Source of the DNA: Paecilomyces variotii
Lineage: Eukaryota
Strand: one strand, 5' to 3'
DNA length: 64,000 nt
Assembly: GCA_004022145.1 (NCBI GenBank)
Contig: RCNU01000001.1
Both the position numbers and the translations under genes were made by a program. This document shows, piece by piece, positions 1,602 to 12,201 of the stretch. Position 1 is the first letter of the stretch; the number at the start of each line of letters is the position of its first letter. Under the pieces are notes generated by a model. The model had not been told where the DNA came from. It searched no databases and saw nothing but the letters and a program-made list of their open reading frames with translations.

Positions 1602-2518
1602 ATGGTTGCTGACGCCGTTATCTACCACCCTGCGGTGGCTCATTACCTGCGCTTCGTCGCTACGACCGGTAGGTAGACTCGTTGATTCTTATCCTTATCG
1701 CTCATCCTCGATCAAAACGCAGGATGAAGGAGGAGATGTGACGGTCGCAATGCGGGATCTTCTCTCCCGTCCATATCAGATGGAACATGGAGAGACGAGT
1801 TTACTGATGATCTATAATAGTTGGTCGCGACAAGCTGCTGCGAACCCTCCAGTACTTCTCCCGCTTCTACGCCTGGTACCTGTTCCGTACCAACCGCCCC
1901 CAGACCGCGATCGCACCCTTCGAATCCATCAAGAAGCAGTTCGGTCTGACGCGAAAGATCCTCCGTATCGGCAAGTTCATTGAACACTTCAAGGCCGCTG
2001 CCGTTGCCTTTGACAACAAGGCCCCCGTCGACCCGATCCTGCGCTGTCTTGCCGTGGGTCGCCAGCTTGGTTACGCCGGCTACATGTCTTACGACACTAT
2101 CACCGTCATCCACGCTCTCGGCATCAAGAAGCTCGCGAACCCGAAGAAGATGCAGGAGAACGCATACCGCGCGTGGTTGGCGTCATTGGTGTGCAGCGCT
2201 ATCGCGGGAGTCTACTCTCTATGGAAGTTGCACCAGCGCGAGAAGCTGGTCGACCGCACGGAAGGCGAGGGCGCTGTGGAATTGAAGAAGATCCAGAAGT
2301 ACGTCTTTTCTATGCAGTCTATTCGAGTTTCGTATGTTAATTAACCTCTGTTCAGGGAACGCGCCGCCGCCCGCGTCCAGCTCATCTCGGACCTGTTCGA
2401 CCTCCCGATCCCTCTCTCGGGAGTGGGCATCGTCCCTCTCGACGACGGTATCGTCGGTCTCTCGGGTACCGTCAGCTCCCTGCTCGGCATCTGGTCGGCC
2501 TGGAAGAAGACTGCCTAA
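1602..2518 (+). CDS. PEX11: Peroxisomal biogenesis factor 11 (exons 1602-1668, 1821-2298, 2357-2518)
   Basis: MVADAVIYHP...ATT/VGRDKLLRTLQYFSRFYAWY motif, RKILRIGKF, C-terminal DDGIVGLSGTVSSLLGIWSAWKKT; GT-AG introns with CTRAY-like branch sites. Confidence 0.95.
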
Positions 2519-3640
2519 GCGGGCTCTACCCGATGATACCGACTGGAACCAGAACTGTACATCAGTACGTGCGCGACAGTAGCTGGATCCTTACTAGTGC
2601 CTAATTGGGATGGTATATACACTTTGTTACAGGTCCAAAGGATGGGGAGGGTTTGCGTTGATTGCGTCGTTTTGTTGTTACAATAGAGAGAACCCGACCG
2701 AGAGGCAAAACTGCACAATGGACGAAACGGATAGTTATTCCTTATTCACTATTCCTTGGCTGATATGCAGTATTATCATTCTTTTCGCAAGCCCTCGATC
2801 CTTTTCGTTTACACTTGTCTGATATCCGCTTTCCTATTGGTCTTGCCCCTTCTGCTGACGAGAATTCATGTATGCTATCCAATTTACCAAAACTGTTTTT
2901 TTTTTCCTACGATATAACCAACATACCTATCTACTTCCATACAAGTAGGAATCTGTAAAACCTTAAGTTTCTAACCATACATTCTCGAATCCCAGATAGT
3001 TAACTGCCTGGGCACCGCAGTGAAAACGCCGCGCGGAATGGATATGGATATCGTTTTCCCCTCCCCCCTTCCCCTCACAGCTAACTAATAATAACAACAA
3101 TAATAGTAATAGTCATAACGAATCTCCAAATCGAAACCCCAAGAAAGAAAGAAAAAAAGGTTTTCCGAGAATTTCCCGAAAGAAAAGGAATTCACGTTGC
3201 GCCCCCCCTTTCTTCCATTTATAATTTAGTTGGGAAGATGAGACGGTATGTGATTGCTCCAGTGGCTGATTAGTATTACCAATTCCGGCGATAATATCGG
3301 TCTAACCTAGTTTGGAATGTATATATATATACCTAGGTATGGTAACTAGTTTATACTCCGTATTATTATTATTACCGTCCGTGAACTTTAGAGAAATATA
3401 TTTTGTACAGTACGTACATACATGGTTAATTACATGGTAATAATAATGTCAATTAGGGGGGAATGGGAGAGATCGAAATTGAAAGTAAATCTTAAATTAT
3501 GGTTTTCGGTCGTTACTTTTTTTTCGCTTTTCTGTGGTACAAAATAAGTACAGTAGCTGAAAGTCATACCGAATTCAGACTGTCGCTTCGTTCGCTAAAA
3601 TATCGGATCTGGTTACGTAATTCATTGCGTGGACGAACTA

Positions 3641-3660
3641 GATAGATAGATAGATAGATA
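3641..3660. repeat. (GATA)5 microsatellite
   Basis: gatagatagatagatagata in an AT-rich intergenic tract. Confidence 0.85.
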
Positions 3661-6600
3661 CATTTCGTTCTATTATATTAAATGATAGAATATTGTAGAA
3701 AGGGCAAAGAAAAATGTACAGAGCTTTAGATCAGATACTTGAATATCAAGGTGGCTTTTTACTCTATCCGTATGGATAGATTCTTGGTCCAGTGAAGATA
3801 ATAGTTAAATAATATCACTCGGACTGACTGCGCTGCCCTTCTGATTAATACTCATGACGCAGTTGTGGGCGACACTCCGAATATCCACTTTCGATAACGA
3901 ACCTTGGGAAAAGCCGGTCCGTAGATGTAAGGACTCGATGCAGGGTCCTTTCCCCTACTCGATAAAGCATAATATGGATGAAGGGATAAGGAACCTAAGC
4001 TTTGGTTTTTCAGAATCGTGGAAGTTATGCGGATGTATTGTTTCAGACTGGGTATATCATATCTTCTAAGAACGCAGAAAAAGAGAACCACATAGCGATT
4101 TTTTTTCCCATGCTGGACGCTTGTATCCCTTCCCATGATCCATAGTGAACATAGTTGAGTAGACCTGCGTCATTGTGGAACAGATTCATCCTTATATTAT
4201 ATCTTCATCGAATCAGCGGCGACACTCGGATGCAGGAACGAGGATGGCTCGGATGCAGGGTCTGATTGCATCGCACAATGTGGAGTGGAGATCTGTATGG
4301 TATATCCATCCCCTCGAGGATACCTAGGTGTGGCTCGAAGCGAATTGACTTGAAGACCATCTTTAATTTAACCTCACGGAAAGCGGGTGGGATTTCGTTG
4401 CCAGGTTACCCACCTGGATGCGCGTTCTTGAGTAGGTAGTTTCCAGGTCTGTTTCCAAAGTCCCTTGTTGTCTGGATCGGTAGTAACTTAGTTATACTAT
4501 ACTACACGATGACAACGGAGATATGATAACTATGCGCTCCAGCTTTGGGCGAAGCACAGATTAACTACTACGTCTATCTACTGTACTGTACCAAGCATGT
4601 CGATAATTTCATCCCAGATCTCTCGACGGTCTTGTGTAGTGGCAATTTGATCATGAGCAACACGTCGGAAAACAGACGGCACAGAATGGGTAACTGACGC
4701 AGAGAGAGAATTTTCATATACCATGAATTGTGACTCCTAGCGTGGGTACTTCTCAACGTCTTCGTTGTAAAGGCCGCCGCACCGAGTCGAGTCCCGTCGA
4801 GACGGCGAGATATCTCCATTTTCCTGCGGCAACTGCCGGCGTACTGAATAGACAACAGTCCACGGACAGGGAGATATGTTAATGAACTTATCTGACCTAC
4901 CAGGAGGGAGTTTTCGAGGAGCAACCTCCCAGTCAGCTTTCTTGGTTCGTGAAGGTGTCTTTAATATCGGCTGATCCAGTCCAGTCTAAGCCAGATTAGC
5001 ATCACCCATGCTTGATAGTTTGGAGATTATCAGGTGAACAAAAGCCATGTGTGCCCTCTCATGGTGCCTTCTATGTGACTATCCTGATAAGAAGTACCTG
5101 GGCAAAGGGGTAGTAGGAATCGAGAAGTTGCCAGCTTGAGTTATGTTTGGAAATGTCAAAATCACGAAGGAATGTTTAATTTTCAATGGCTTTTGTCCGT
5201 GTCTTTATTGGATAATTAGAATAAGTTGGAGATACTTTGAACGAATCATTTTCATTGGTATAACAGTGTTGATGATGGAGTATGCATCGTTCATGAATTC
5301 AGCCATTGTCGTTATTTCCAGAACCTTTTTTGATGGCTGCGTACTTGTGAAACCATTACTGTAGGATGTAGTAGTATTAGGACCAGGATCAAGATCTCAA
5401 ACGAGCTGCTCCCCCTCTAGTCTCTTCGATTTCGATTTGCTGCTTTATAGTCGAAACAGTAGATACTCGTTTGTCCCGAGCTCCGTTCTGAAAGCTGGGG
5501 GGGCGTAGCTCTCATCAATCATGACAAGTTCTTCTTTCGCCAGCGCTTCTTTTGTCGCTAGCTGTTTGCTGAAATCTGAGAAGCAAATGATTTCGGGCCA
5601 TTCATTCTCCGAGGTTTGATCTTTTCGATGAGCTTGTTTGTATATTTTCAAGCGATTTTTGAGAGAGCGTATTGTAGCCGGAGACTTCAGCTGGGTGCAG
5701 GTTATTACAACTGTAAGGGGTAATTCCCGTACAGCTTCCCCTACATATTGAACCCTTATTCTTCCTCCACTTCACCTCCGTGGACCCCCTCCAGAACGTC
5801 ACCCTCATTATTGGAGAACTGAAGCAGTCCTTGGGATTAGCGCAGTATATCACGTACCCAAAAGCTTGGGCTCACGAATGGGTCTGAATGCGACATCCAC
5901 CCAAGCAGGTGATAGTATAATACAGTATTACCCTCTCGAGAAGCAGCATAGTAGGTTCGCAACGTCTCTCCTGAATATACTCTGATCGAATTGTCATTTA
6001 TCGACAGCTGATGTACGAGGAGGTTGAGATAGTTCTGGAAGTCGTTGAATCTTCCCAAGATTTCTCTGTTTGGATAATGCGCGCATGATACGGCTTTCCG
6101 GCTAAAGCCTCTCCACAGTATATAGAAATAGATGTTAATATACTATCCACGGACGTATAGGGTAAGGGTGCGATTGTGGAGGATGGAGTCGAGATACCAC
6201 CTGTCGACGGCGGGCATCAGCCATAGTAGAGGAATCAGAGCTGTGTAGCCCACAGAAGCGAAAACCGGGAGATGGAGTAGAATCCGCGTCCAGAGCAGCA
6301 TCAGCAGCAGTCCGTTTATCGACCGGACCGGTGTAATTGCAGTAGGGGCAGGGTCTTTGAAGAGGAATATAAGACCCTCAGTATCCTCACATAAACATCA
6401 AAACCCGTTAGGCCTTTAAAATACCCAGTGGATCTTTATGATTAAGATGAACATTTACTTGTCTTGTCGGACTCAGAGAGTGCTTTTTGTTTGACGAGGT
6501 CTGATCTCGAATGTTGCAGTCATCATTGCGGGCTCGATATTCATTTTTGCTTCTTCCCTCAGCTCAGGTTCGTCTTTGCTTTCAATTGTCTCGACTCAAA

Positions 6601-8573
6601 GAGTGCTGATGCTGACGTCCACGCCCCATGGAATATCAACGGCACGGAATGCCATTAACGCCGACTTATCAAATTCTTCCCCGGCCTTGTGCTGAGTGGC
6701 ATTTAGGCAGCCAGGCTGAGGTCTCGATGCTTGATTCGACGGTTCAGAACGCCAAATGGGACATTAAAGGCCCGGCGGTACAGCTCCATGCAGCAAATCA
6801 AAGGTGGTTTCTTTAGACATTGACTATCTAGACCGATGTATGAATCTCAAGTTAGCAACTAATCCAAACATATATGAAATCAGAATCAGGGTTCTTGAAT
6901 AGTAGCATATGCTGCACGTACATTTAGAACTATCATGGTTTATCCACGACTTGTTTTCAAATGCGATTTGAACCTCCCATAGTAGAGTATAGATACTTTG
7001 GGCGGTCGCTTATTGCTGTATCTCCACATGAGGGGACGCCGCTCCCAAGATAGGGTTGAGCACACGAATTGCATGGTTTGGTACAGGATACCAGAAGTGG
7101 AACTTGATGTTCAATCGCATGCCATGTATCTTTGAGAAAGAATTTCCGGGACCTGCTTCCTTTGGTGTTCGAAATAGGTTCAACCTAGAATTTCAATAGA
7201 CAATAACAGGGATAAAAAGAACATCGTATGAAAGTGAGCAACGGAAGCACGGGGAATACTGAATATTCAAGCTTAGAAGTAGCGGTAGAGAGAACATGGA
7301 CATTGATATCCAGAAGAATGACAATCGAACCTTTCCTCCAGATCTTTCGAGCCATTATCTTCTAGGACATTATAGTTTCTGCTTCGAGCCACTTATATAA
7401 AAATCCAGCCCTCCCAAACCATGGCACTATACCCACAAGTAGAGTAGTATCGGGATACCACGATGACTCTGTAGCAATGTTTGAGCCGCCTTGTCATCCA
7501 CCCATGCCCACTTCGTCCTTGATTATGATCTGGATGAGTGGCAATCCGCCGCAGTTGCATCTCTCGCTCACGTGAGGATCTCTGAATGAGGTTATTGGAG
7601 TTTGAGAAAGAATATCGTGGATATACAAATAAAATGTGGTATTCCTGTGCCAACAGCCACTAAAATGGCACATGTATTGCCTTCCAAACAGGAGGTGTGG
7701 GCAGGTGGGATGGTATCTCAGGTAGTAGTCCCATTGTCAAATGGGATTCGTGAAGATAAGCACCGACAGATGAGCGATTCTCGCCAGATCAATGCAATGT
7801 GATGCCCAACGGCACCACCCATCAGGTCTGGGTCGTTCCAGACGTACTTGTCAATAGGTCGTCTGGTTAGGAATGCCTCGGGGATCGTTATCATAGACCG
7901 TGAATGGGTTGAAGTCAGGGGGTAAGGTGAACGTGTTCCATAGACGATCGTTAGAAGATTTAATCAAGAACGGCATAAGTCCTTTAAAATCCTCGATTGC
8001 GTTCAAAATACTGAACCTTTTTTTTTCTCTGGAACAAATTTCTCTATAATAGAGTAGCGACCCATCTTATGCGTTGAGACCTATTTCCAGCGAAAAGAAA
8101 AACACAAAGGCGTTGGCATTGACTAGGACCGGCAAATAGCTGATCTGCAGAATCCTCCCGAGTAGTCAGGTTGACTTGATCGAGATAGTGTCGAATGACT
8201 GGCCTGGCAAGATACTGTAACAGATTGAATCAATATGTATTAGACTGAGACGGTGCTGATATTCTGTACTTACGGTCATCTTTGATAATGCCCAGGAGGG
8301 TTGTCTGGTCGAATTTATTGAAAAACTTGAATGAAAAGCGAATTCAGTTATCGTTGCTTATGAAATATCAATAGTATACAGAGCCATGAAGTGTATACTG
8401 CTGCAAAGTATGAACAGATATACTATTGCTGCTTCTCAAAGAGAATGCAATCTACTGTCTATATAGTTATTTGTCAGAACTACAGTATAGACAGAAACCC
8501 CGGCCCAATACAATGGGCGCTGAGGATGGAAAGAAATGGGAAACAGAAAAACTCGAACTTGACCCCTCATCCC

Positions 8574-8598
8574 ATATATATATATATATATATATATA
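8574..8598. repeat. (TA)n microsatellite
   Basis: About 12 TA units seen directly. Confidence 0.9.
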
Positions 8599-9489
8599 GT
8601 CAAGAGAATCCATTCACACCGACTGGTTCTTGACTGCGCTCTTTCCCGACAAGGCGCAATTCATACAGAGTCGTCCTTCGATGAATGACGTGGAGACTGC
8701 ACTGCTGGTATACCAATGGCTGTAGGGGGACCAGAAGAGTGAAAGAACCTTTGCAATTCAAGCAGATTTCTCCCGCTAGATCTGAACGTAATATGGAATT
8801 AAACGTGCCTTTGACCAAGCCCTTACCGTTGTTGAATGCAGAATATCCAGTTACGTCCACGTCGATCATGCTGACAATCTGACAAGAATCGGGACCTCAC
8901 GGGCCCAGCCACGAGTCCTTATCACTCTTGATAGTTGATTCATACGGTCCTCAACATTGCTTGTACGGACGACCCAACTCATCTGCAGATAATCAGTATC
9001 AGAAAAGCTCCGATCCAAACAACATCCCCCAAAGCGCATCTCCCGTAGGACAAAACACCTATCACTTCACATCGAAAAGCAAGTTAAAACACCACCAAAC
9101 CCACATCGCACACGCTGTCCACCTATCTTTAAACCGCGTGGATCGTGCCAGCGCTGAAACCGCGTCGACTCGGATGCGTTGGTTGGCGGGGCAGGTGATA
9201 CATACCGCTTAGAGCGGGGTAATGATGGCCTATCGCACCAAGTTCAATAATCGAGGCTTATCAGCTGGTCTTTTTCTTCTTATTTATTTCTGCTGGGTTC
9301 CTCTTTTTCTCATTTCTTCTTTTTCTCTCTTTTTACTACTGAATTTTGAGAAAGAAGAGTTATAGCTCGAACAACTATTTTCCAGGTATGTCGGGATGCC
9401 GGTTGTATACTTACCCCCGCTTAGGGAAGGTTGGTACTGATATGGTATAATAGGATCTCTCACCCAACCTTCTAAACGAATCATCCAAA

Positions 9490-9659
9490 ATGGCTGGCCA
9501 CAACTCTTGTCCTTCCTGCGGTGCTGGCATCCAGGGCGAGACCAAGACTTGCAACTCCTGCGGCAAGGTAGGTAGTGTCTGTCGAATCAAGATTTTGCGT
9601 TTTCATGTACGCTTTGAACGAGACGCTGATGTCTTTTCTGATAGACCTGCCCTGTCTAA
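9490..9659 (+). CDS. 30-aa Cys-rich zinc-ribbon micro-protein MAGHNSCPSCGAGIQGETKTCNSCGKTCPV (exons 9490-9567, 9645-9659)
   Basis: Strong start context (CAAAATGG), donor AAG|GTAGGT, branch GCTGAT at 9625, acceptor TAG at 9642-9644, second exon ACC TGC CCT GTC TAA; C-x2-C-x10-C-x2-C pattern. Confidence 0.8.
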
Positions 9660-10032
9660 ACGGACGCTACGAAGAATGAATACCATGGGACGAGGAGTTG
9701 GGTGGCTAGTATTGCAATGAAGAAATCATGCGGGGCTTCGCGTCCGGATCTTTTACTGAACGGATCGCATCAATAGATGGTCTCTGTGCCAAGGCGGTCG
9801 TCGTCTCAGTCATGAATTAGACATTATGTTTTGATTCATATCATATGGGTCTATATTTAGTTCATGATCTTCGTCCATCGCCACTGTAACGCCATATTGT
9901 AGTATCTGCCTGTTTCCCCGTCCGTAGACCGATTTCCTGGGAGTCCTGCTCACTGGAATAAATCAAACCGTCTAAACCCAATGATGACGCCAGACCAATA
10001 CCTAAAATCAAGAAAGAACGCCTATTCCTGCC

Positions 10033-12201
10033 TCACACAATATTCTTTATCTCAGTTTCAACAACATCATGTTTTCGCATCGAGTCCGAGTCTGAGTCCG
10101 AGTCCCTTCGGAAGCTCTCCTGTTCTGGCAGCGGCCAGCCCTCATCACCGCGAATGCCATTCGCATCGTCTGGGTGCAGCGTATGTCGCTGGTTTCGGTA
10201 TTCCATGGCCCCAGTCTCCATGCGTGAAAACCGGTTGTGGACGATCGCAGAGTGCTGCTCTGGCTTGAGCTCACTGTTGTTTGGCAATGGCTCGTTTTCA
10301 GACAGGATAACTATCTCCACCGGGATGTCGCTGATAGGCTTGACATGGAGCACTCTGTATATGAAGCTGAGGATGGGGACAGACAGGCCATGGACTATAA
10401 TGGAGAAAAAGACGAGCCAATAGACGACTGGGATGTGTCATGCATGTTAGATGGATATACTGACGAAAACGTGGTGAGACACTAGGTTCTTACCGGGAAC
10501 AATAGCTGAAGTTAGATTATTGATCTCTCTGTCACTTTCACCTGGCTCCGGAAAGAGTCCGCTGGTGTACTCCGCATACGAGATAGCCCCAAGGCCTAGA
10601 GATTATTAGCATATCTCAGGCAAGCTCAGGGAAGACTTACCTATCGGTCCGAAGTATCCCAGAAACATGGCTTCTCTCCAGTTATTGCAAACTTTAGACA
10701 TGAATCTATACGTCATAAGAATGGCAGGAATACGACGAAAAACTAGAACAAACAGGCCGAGCCCAAATAGTCGGGCCACTGTGATTCCCGTGGCTTCGGG
10801 CATCTGGAATGTATCCCATGGCATGACAGTACCGAGATACATGAAGGCGCCGAAGTTCAGGAGAGTTTCAATTGCTGGGTTAAATGAATCGTGTCGCGCT
10901 TCCGTCTCATGAAGATACTGGCCGTCCCAGTTGAGAGCGTTTCCTGCAATGAAGCAGGCAAGCGTCTCATCTGATCCAACGCAGCCGCAGGTCCCAATGA
11001 TAAACAACTATATGCATGTTTAGCAGATGAATTCAACAGAGAGCCGGCCTACTTACCGCCATCCCCACAGGGAAAATCAGGTAACACTCATTGCAGATCC
11101 ATTTCCTGTGAAAGTTAGTATACTATTGTGAAGGGACTTTACAGAGTTGACTTACTTTCTGAGGGAAAGATTCAGGATCTTCCTGGATCCGTACCCAACA
11201 AGCGCACCGTAGCTGAAGCCCATCATGACCATGTAAATGACCCCTTCTACAGCCCAGTGTTTCAAAGCTTCCCCAGTACCCCCGCCAAATCGACCTACGT
11301 CTGAGGAGCCTAGCGCATCGGGTATACCTCTTGCAAGATCAAAGTCCTCGAGGGAGATGGTGTTGGCTGGTGCTTCTGCGTAGCGCAGGAGAGAAACGGC
11401 AAGAAGCAGGAAGGGAAAGCCAAAGCCATCATTGCCTCCTGCTTCGGAAGAGATGAATTCTCGGACGTGGCGATGAACGTAGTTGTCAGCAAATGGACCT
11501 TTTGCGATCGCCTGGGACAGAATGGGGTCGGTGGGAGTCACGCAGGATGCGATGATCAACGAAGACAGCTATCGAATGTAAGCAAGAATAGTATCAACAG
11601 GAGATACGATATGTTCAACTTACGAATGAGATTTTTGGTATAAAAAGCATGATGCAAGCAGATGTAAAGAGCCACATGAGTGTCATAACAGCCAGTAAAT
11701 AGATAGTCATCTCCACGAATCGCTCTCTCAGATATTGTTTGGGCAGCTCATAACCGGCCTTGACCATTTGGATTCCAATAACAACACGGGCAACGCCCTA
11801 TGCCTGTTAGCCATGCACATGTCACAACTATATAAAAGGGGGTTTCTCCGGAGGTCAACTTACAAGTGTTATTTCGCTGCTCTGGCCTGCTTCTCCATTT
11901 CCCCATTGATCTGCAATAAGGAACTTTGCACCCACTGGTCCCAAAAGGATACCCAAGACGAAAGCCGGTACTGGGGGTTATCAGCGACCGCCTTAATAGA
12001 ATGGTAGTCCATGGGCCACGAACATGCTTCTCCAATATACCATTTCTGTTTTAATTTCAGCGACAGAAACCCGAAGATCAGTGAAAAGGCACCTGCTTGA
12101 CAATTAGCTTCAGAAGAGAGTACTCGAACTTTCGGGTTCTGCGAACCTGCGACCGAGAGGACGACATTTAGATTACTAACGTCCAGAATCGGTCTGAGCA
12201 T
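10033..12201 (-). CDS. Cation/H+ (Na+/H+) antiporter, CPA1/Nha1-like family, multi-exon
   Basis: LKQKWYIGEA, IASCVTPTDPILSQAIAKG, SSEAGGNDGFGFPF, LVFRRIP, FLGYFGPIG motifs; several GT-AG introns join the exons in frame. Confidence 0.9.

Follow-up and report, generated by a model that had tools for sequence, protein, structure and literature searches.

The window, by which we mean the whole 64-kb stretch of DNA that was analyzed, contains at positions 9490–9659 a real micro-gene, which yields a spliced transcript with two introns and encodes a micro-protein of 30 amino acids that contains five Cys and one His, the Cys core being spaced C-x2-C-x10-C-x2-C. This arrangement was the single occurrence of C-x2-C-x(8-14)-C-x2-C in all six frames of the window. 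As judged by sequence comparison, the micro-protein belongs to an ancient family that is common to filamentous ascomycetes. The best overall explanation, which we put forward tentatively, is an intracellular zinc-ribbon micro-protein with a spare His/Cys half-site. The transcript and its coding region comprise the following features.

9270–9345, plus strand: pyrimidine-rich tract (84% C+T) near the probable transcription start
9292–9385, plus strand: non-coding first exon, 5' end approximate
9386–9453, plus strand: 5' UTR intron of 68 nt (GTATGT ... ACTGAT ... TAG)
9490, plus strand: ATG start codon in the context CCAAAATGG
9490–9567, plus strand: coding part of exon 2, codons 1–26, with His4 and the knuckle residues Cys7, Cys10, Cys21 and Cys24
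9568–9644, plus strand: coding-region intron of 77 nt, phase 0, with donor GTAGGT, branch GCTGAT at 9625 and acceptor TAG at 9644
9645–9659, plus strand: last coding exon, Thr-Cys28-Pro-Val-TAA, which holds the fifth Cys
9660–9867, plus strand: 3' UTR, end approximate (contig ends at 9867 in X5, 9849 in X11 and 9797 in X12)

Splicing was examined in 4 of the 20 runs listed, from four studies, all in the form of assembled contigs, which lose rare transcript forms; X11 alone is recorded as RNA, and X3, X5 and X12 were taken as RNA by guess. X12 bears another organism code, yet it matched the window without any difference and is not cross-species evidence. The original prediction had proposed a 30-aa spliced ORF with this 77-nt intron and this Cys spacing, and had named the 9567/9645 junction as the one to look for in RNA-seq. 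The sequence is as described, and the intron was skipped at this junction in three of the four runs (X5, X11 and X12), while X3 had loose ends at 9567 and 9643, each reading into the opposite exon. The 5' UTR intron, absent from the original prediction, was likewise skipped in three runs (the 9385–9454 join in contigs of X3, X5 and X11). No depth was detected in the internal bins of either intron in any of the four runs, and no upstream ATG is present in the 130-nt spliced leader. One X5 contig starts at 9292 and an X3 contig extends further upstream, so that the transcription start is not fixed. Contig depth, which was very high in X3, is not taken here as a measure of expression. Near the 3' end, one X11 contig (depth 3.9) ended at 9662 with nine letters matching 9479–9487, after an 8-nt repeat that occurs at both sites (9471–9487 and 9655–9662), which can be read as a template switch or a back-join.

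Database searches turned up homologues. With the 30-codon read-through as query, phmmer found 82 matches, ten of which were single-stretch matches at 63–85% identity; where a name is given, it is from Aspergillus, Thermoascus or Coccidioides. Searches with profiles brought in 43 matches, then another 155 (the best 120 of these 155 are listed); the genera named among the profile matches listed include Penicillium, Talaromyces, Parastagonospora, Pyrenophora, Plenodomus, Elsinoe, Ramularia and Pyricularia, as well as Neurospora, Sordaria, Colletotrichum, Xylaria, Ceratocystis, Blumeria and Mollisia. We take the named matches listed to fall in four classes, the Eurotio-, Dothideo-, Sordario- and Leotiomycetes. 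Yeasts were not among the named matches listed, which does not show that they lack the gene, and one candidate record from the basidiomycete Mycena was among the matches listed. Searches of the genome itself with exon 1, with the homologue P0094 and with PF13240 found no paralogues, making the gene single-copy so far; a second PF13240 place in this genome (E 0.25) was inspected and dropped. A single-sequence word search yielded no candidate, and the ESM Atlas returned solely unnamed or Zn_Ribbon_1 clusters at 0.89–0.91, a lead at most.

Metagenome contigs returned 37 loci, and in 31 of them the second CxxCG is followed by one codon and then directly by a GT, placing the donor at the same codon as in the window. 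The remaining six (L024, L026, L034, L036, L037 and L038), of which five are GC-rich and have no GT and one lacks the motif, were dropped as non-members. In 30 of the 31 family loci, a YAG acceptor 48–143 nt downstream is followed by x-Cys-Pro-x-stop; the last locus has an AAG acceptor, on a reading by eye, and the same x-Cys-Pro-x-stop end. No locus has lost the four-codon exon on which the fifth Cys stands alone, and the stop at the same place is written as TAA, TGA or TAG across the family.

The coding sequence bears evident marks of purifying selection. We compared 20 distinct 24-codon cores, including that of the window, after removal of many duplicate loci and without L017, L035 (one-codon deletion) and L025. 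Over the 190 pairs, which are not independent, pS was 0.675 and pN 0.227, giving a ratio of 0.34 that is uncorrected and affected by saturation; the ratio was below 0.5 in 169 pairs, and 10 of the 16 closest pairs had silent changes alone. Eleven of the 24 columns of the core are invariant, with Cys, Pro, Lys, Ser and Gly among them. Spliced transcripts, homologues with a conserved intron position and a ratio well below 1 were thus all found, where the original prediction had named the lack of spliced reads, the lack of homologues or a dN/dS near 1 as grounds for abandoning the gene. The invariant Lys19 uses one codon in all 20 cores, and third positions are C or T in 79% of cases, a bias of the kind found in fungal genes with strong expression. 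A contiguous N-terminal extension of 5–10 residues, ending in Val-Asn before the His, was observed in Pleosporales and some Sordariomycete members (P0091, P0094, P0097, P0108, P0119, L004, L010 and L015); Eurotiales members are without it.

Database models of the family are mostly wrong. Among 200 proteins, 108 fit the family pattern, and 81 of these run on with Val at the GT donor, reading through the intron into tails that are mutually unrelated. Sixteen finish in x-Cys-Pro-x, 12 of them with a short N-terminus and a length of 27–39 aa; two stop at the donor and nine end otherwise. Entries are named hypothetical, uncharacterised or zinc-ribbon domain-containing, or bear automatic ribosomal-protein labels. 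The gene had been described as probably unannotated, and in a strict sense this does not apply to its homologues, which are present in NCBI and UniRef as hypothetical or zinc-ribbon proteins; most are nevertheless mis-spliced, and only 12 of the 108 have a plausible correct model. The family is mis-annotated more than unannotated. No description of it was found in the literature searched, where the rice-blast name MGG_07177 was not among the terms. One 323-aa entry from Penicillium subrubescens (P0202) consists of an alpha/beta hydrolase followed by a complete micro-protein at its end, and is probably two adjacent genes fused by the gene caller.

The core of the micro-protein is of a known type. 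Zn_Ribbon_1 (PF13240), Zn_ribbon_3 (PF13248) and DZR (PF12773) have the same C-x2-C-G-A-x-I-x4-K-x-C-x2-C-G pattern with its 10-residue spacer, and the proposal of a zinc-ribbon module agrees with the spacing and the two CxxCG knuckles, although Zn_Ribbon_1 scored exon 1 at 21.6 bits (E 1.8e-4), under its cut-off of 25. Its score was 21 bits in the genome search and 19.9 bits for the homologue P0103; several homologues carry a precomputed PF13240 match, and in alignment A3, 16 of 17 and 17 of 17 members matched zinc-ribbon families at E 0.01. The spacer was 10 residues in 98 and 9 residues in 10 of the 108 family proteins, and at the two positions after Cys2, where NZF fingers have their ubiquitin-binding Thr-Phe, Gly stands in 99 and Ala in 92, with no Phe. 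By contrast, the Pfam zinc-ribbon modules that we saw are repeats in larger proteins with Phe before Cys3 in 229 of 340, whereas the module makes up the entire micro-protein, in which Thr or Ser takes that position. The 12 well-called members contain at most one aromatic residue and have a net charge of 0 to +2.

Two residues lie outside this core. Of 99 proteins that had been selected without requiring a His, 97 have one 3–4 residues before Cys1 (the two exceptions are modules within larger proteins), and a fifth Cys occurs four residues after Cys4. Among the 340 other C-x2-C-x10-C-x2-CG modules in the remaining matches, the His was present in six and the fifth Cys in none. On this sequence pattern, the His before Cys1 and the terminal fifth Cys mark the family as a specific addition to a core of known type.

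An AlphaFold2 model of a 30-aa P. steckii homologue, made without metal, had a pLDDT of 72 and a pTM of 0.31. It gave 17 structural matches at Z 2.0–3.3, 16 of which were RanBP2/NZF-type C4 fingers; these Z values are so weak that they indicate a common arrangement at most, and Foldseek with the same model found nothing at E 0.001. The RanBP2/NZF fingers (Npl4, TAB2, Nup153, ZRANB2, FUS and MDM2) and the ZC4H2 finger share the Cys spacing of the micro-protein and, as far as the weak structural matches go, its predicted two-hairpin arrangement; the histidines of the ZC4H2 finger are described as not zinc-binding (PMC12383448). However, RanBP2/NZF fingers are domains of large proteins, and the micro-protein is without their Trp, Asn and Thr-Phe. 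From the signature W-X-C-X(2,4)-C-X3-N-X6-C-X2-C given for RanBP2 in the same source, neither the Trp two residues before Cys1 nor the Asn four residues after Cys2 was found in any of the 108 proteins, and none had the Thr-Phe of NZF fingers directly after Cys2.

The likeness to haloarchaeal CPxCG micro-proteins that had been drawn in the original prediction is one of motif class. The haloarchaeal C(P)XCG proteins (Brz, HVO_2753 and others) are also stand-alone, shorter than 70 aa and equipped with a pair of C(P)XCG motifs, and a 2019 statement in the same source has it that just one one-domain zinc-finger micro-protein had been studied previously in any species (PMC6562870). The fungal micro-protein differs from this class in being eukaryotic, spliced and basic to neutral, with a conserved His and a terminal Cys-Pro. 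No prokaryotic family member was found: four matches to the narrow pattern in prokaryotic genomes and one in viral contigs all lacked the family's end, and NCBIfam scores stayed far under their cut-offs, with HVO_0416 at 14.9 bits against a cut-off of 80.

Upstream of the gene lies a feature that is new here, a tandem pair of candidate CreA/Mig1-type sites that recurs in all five Eurotiales-like loci examined.

9186–9220, plus strand: tandem GCGGGGC (9186) ... GCGGGGT (9214), candidate CreA/Mig1-type sites; the 64-kb window has no other pair of this kind, where 0.03 would be expected

GCGGGG is reported as the site bound by Mig1/CreA-type repressors (bioRxiv 10.64898/2026.05.08.723686). The same-strand GCGGGGC ... 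GCGGGGT pair also occurs in L002, L016, L018 and L035, 186–395 nt upstream of the ATG, and its two sites lie 10–62 nt apart in the five loci, which are mutually related; one non-family locus has such a pair as well. A promoter test was performed on the 600 nt upstream in 16 of 32 loci, hand-chosen as one or two per lineage. GCGGGGT was present in 8 of the 16, against a mean of 0.7 in 200 null sets, none of which reached 8 (the null being a Markov model and not real promoters). The motif had first been spotted by eye in three loci and was present in 5 of the other 13; it ties for the top of an unbiased 7-mer count, is 12-fold denser upstream than elsewhere in the same loci, and occurs in 8 of 106 tiles of the window. 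No GCGGGGT was found upstream in the L004/L015 and L021/L027 groups. Taken together, these sequence patterns leave an even chance that the tandem GCGGGG pair confers CreA/Mig1-type carbon control, in Eurotiales only.

Metal-regulon motifs (Ace1, Mac1, ZafA-core, SreA and Yap1) were not enriched upstream in the same 16 loci; the Ace1 motif was present in 5 of them (null mean 6.8) and the SreA motif in 1. For HGATAR, the upstream density was roughly double that elsewhere (47 sites against a null mean of 25). The groups without GCGGGG have GCATGCA instead, 13 times in 4 of the 16 loci (L004, L015, L021 and L027; null mean 1.9), perhaps as a control element of another lineage. Upstream of the promoter pair in the window, positions 8900–9075 are covered by a separate low-depth X5 contig and a long X3 contig, hinting at another transcript that terminates near 9075.

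The genes on either side are as follows.

1602–2518, plus strand: PEX11 gene (PF05648, 174 bits), 7 kb upstream of the micro-gene
10033–12201, minus strand: convergent Na+/H+ exchanger-family gene (PF00999, 22.7 bits in the window exon and 39.4 in the L002 orthologue)

The convergence on a cation/H+ antiporter to which the original prediction had drawn attention is present: the exchanger gene lies 373 nt beyond the micro-gene stop, on the minus strand, and two of its introns were skipped in X3. Across loci, however, where flanks reached up to 2.5 kb, the exchanger is a neighbour in only 2 of 31 (L002 and L003, which share one coding sequence), so the convergence carries no functional weight and a functional link to the antiporter was rejected. 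In L002 and L003 the micro-gene lies between PEP carboxykinase and the exchanger, and PEP carboxykinase is found 10 kb downstream in the window. PEX11 adjoins the micro-gene in the Penicillium-like loci L016, L018–L020 and L035, with a hydrolase on the other side, and other loci have MARVEL, TPR, eIF2D, ARMT1, BCKD kinase or DUF382 genes as neighbours. We read this gene order as an old block of the Eurotiales and see no functional pairing in it.

Other observations concern the same region. One X3 contig continues past the 3' UTR into the antiporter; over 9643–10427 it runs unbroken from the last micro-gene exon to the spliced transcript of the antiporter. This points to convergent 3' UTRs that overlap, or else to a merge in the assembly. 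About 6 kb (roughly 2600–8900) between PEX11 and the micro-gene has no long ORF, where the two genes are adjacent in Penicillium-like loci. A gene for a copper-fist transcription factor (PF00649, 53 bits; L046), one of three such genes in the genome, is located at G000:C1:2962965, about 22.5 kb upstream of the micro-gene and outside the window; its position in the same chromosomal block is probably synteny alone.

How might so small a protein work? Cys7, Cys10, Cys21 and Cys24 very probably bind one structural Zn2+ and fold two knuckle hairpins like those of the RanBP2/NZF C4 fingers. A C4 site has no need of His4 and Cys28, yet all members keep both, and we propose that these two residues make up a second half-site that is exposed. 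The N- and C-terminal strands of two-hairpin fingers meet, so that His4 and Cys28 could share one face; we infer their nearness from the register of the fold. A second copy of the chain, or a partner such as a client protein, would complete the site, which would then carry labile metal and make the peptide a small Zn buffer or relay; this is a plausible reading to which we give somewhat less than an even chance. Two results speak against it, the ZC4H2 histidines that do not bind zinc (PMC12383448) and the upstream motif scan, which gave no sign of a metal regulon. If CreA/Mig1-type control operates in Eurotiales, the peptide would be produced once glucose is exhausted. Rather unlikely, as a whole, is the fullest version of this scheme, in which the family would constitute undescribed fungal metal-relay peptides of 27–38 aa, with two chains (or a chain and a client) closing an exchangeable second site, and act as a zinc buffer or chaperone induced by carbon starvation.

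The invariant His4, Lys19, Ser23 and Cys28-Pro29 may alternatively be a binding surface and not a metal site, the finger holding one Zn and serving to bind protein or RNA. We regard this as possible if somewhat doubtful. The structural matches are all binding modules, the best PDB sequence matches are ribosome-associated Zn ribbons (eL37 at E 0.007–0.017 and an archaeal Zn-ribbon RNA-binding protein at E 0.031), and the haloarchaeal one-domain fingers are reported to function as regulators (PMC6562870). However, with no Trp, Asn or Thr-Phe, few aromatics and a charge of 0 to +2, the micro-protein would be a poor RNA or ubiquitin binder, and an invariant Cys is easier to explain as a ligand. 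Rubredoxin-like Fe binding is known from desulforedoxin and Dph3/Kti11, and the two CxxCG knuckles with a spare invariant Cys would also suit an iron or redox micro-protein, in which the four Cys bind Fe, or Zn that is released on oxidation, and Cys28 is a reactive thiol. The doubled density of HGATAR sites is in keeping with such a role, but rubredoxin matches were at noise (E 0.5–0.9), an aromatic core is lacking and the SreA motif is near absent upstream, making this explanation unlikely. It is less probable still that the peptide is an atypical metallothionein, an unfolded Cu(I)/Cd chelator using five Cys and the His. Its tiny size, Cys-richness and near lack of aromatics speak for this, as does the copper-fist gene 22.5 kb upstream; against it, the Cys content is merely 13–19% and neither CxC nor CC occurs in any of the 12 well-called members, the fixed spacing and the invariant Pro, Lys and Gly point to a fold, and the Ace1 motif falls short of its null mean. 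A further fungal copper metallothionein is of the Cup1 type. The Aspergillus proteins CrdA and CmtA are likewise small and Cys-rich with few aromatics; CrdA is described with a length of 109 aa and with 16 Cys and seven CxC, and as lacking His (PMC5447758), whereas the micro-protein has five Cys, exclusively as CxxC, and an invariant His. Identity with CrdA/CmtA was rejected in view of the absence of CxC, the Cys content and the conserved His, and the distinction from Cys-x-Cys metallothioneins made in the original prediction stands.

Descent from a duplicated and trimmed eL37 zinc finger that still acts at the ribosome would explain the best single-stretch PDB profile matches, which are to eL37 at the E values given above, and the L37E label that two members bear at JGI. 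The eL37 finger shares His-x2-Cys-x2-Cys-Gly and the second knuckle Thr-Cys-x2-Cys-Gly with the micro-protein, and in the yeast protein the His three residues before Cys1 and Lys-Thr-Cys-x-Ser-Cys-Gly are held in common. By contrast, DZANK1 scores about equally (E 0.023), the eL37 spacer is 11 residues and not 10 or 9, eL37 has long basic tails, and hhalign gave a probability of 13% against a 20-residue piece. PF01907 (eL37), which finds RPL37 elsewhere in the genome, is not among the 21 families listed for exon 1. The genome's own RPL37 has its introns at different positions and reads His-Thr-Cys-Ala-Asn-Cys-Gly at the second knuckle; because of these two differences, a freed PF13240-like module is preferred as the origin. 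Membership of eL37 was rejected on family score and intron positions, and an eL37 origin is very unlikely. Hardly credible, finally, is that there is no 30-aa protein, the transcript being non-coding or the 76-aa read-through ORF (9490–9720) being the product. That 81 of the 108 database entries are read-through forms is a point in its favor, but their tails are unrelated to one another and start with Val at the GT donor, the introns are without depth in all four runs, conservation follows the codon structure, and no Rfam match was found in 8800–10100 at E 0.1. The zinc ribbon with a spare His/Cys half-site is accordingly the reading that we prefer, tentative as it is.

A gene in which the intron, the place of the stop and eleven residues have stayed the same from Aspergillus and Penicillium as far as Neurospora, Pyrenophora and Blumeria very likely does something important. 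With the wrong model in most databases, it would escape proteomic and knock-out screens alike. One-domain zinc-finger micro-proteins have mainly been studied in haloarchaea, and the fungal family offers a cheap eukaryotic test case, since the 30-mer can be synthesized; two sharp predictions come with it, one from the additional His/Cys residues and one from the paired CreA-type promoter sites. Should the peptide prove to be just another structural finger whose phenotype is modest, an annotation fix is what would be gained. If instead the metal-relay scheme is true, gene callers have concealed metal-relay peptides in these fungi through intron read-through.
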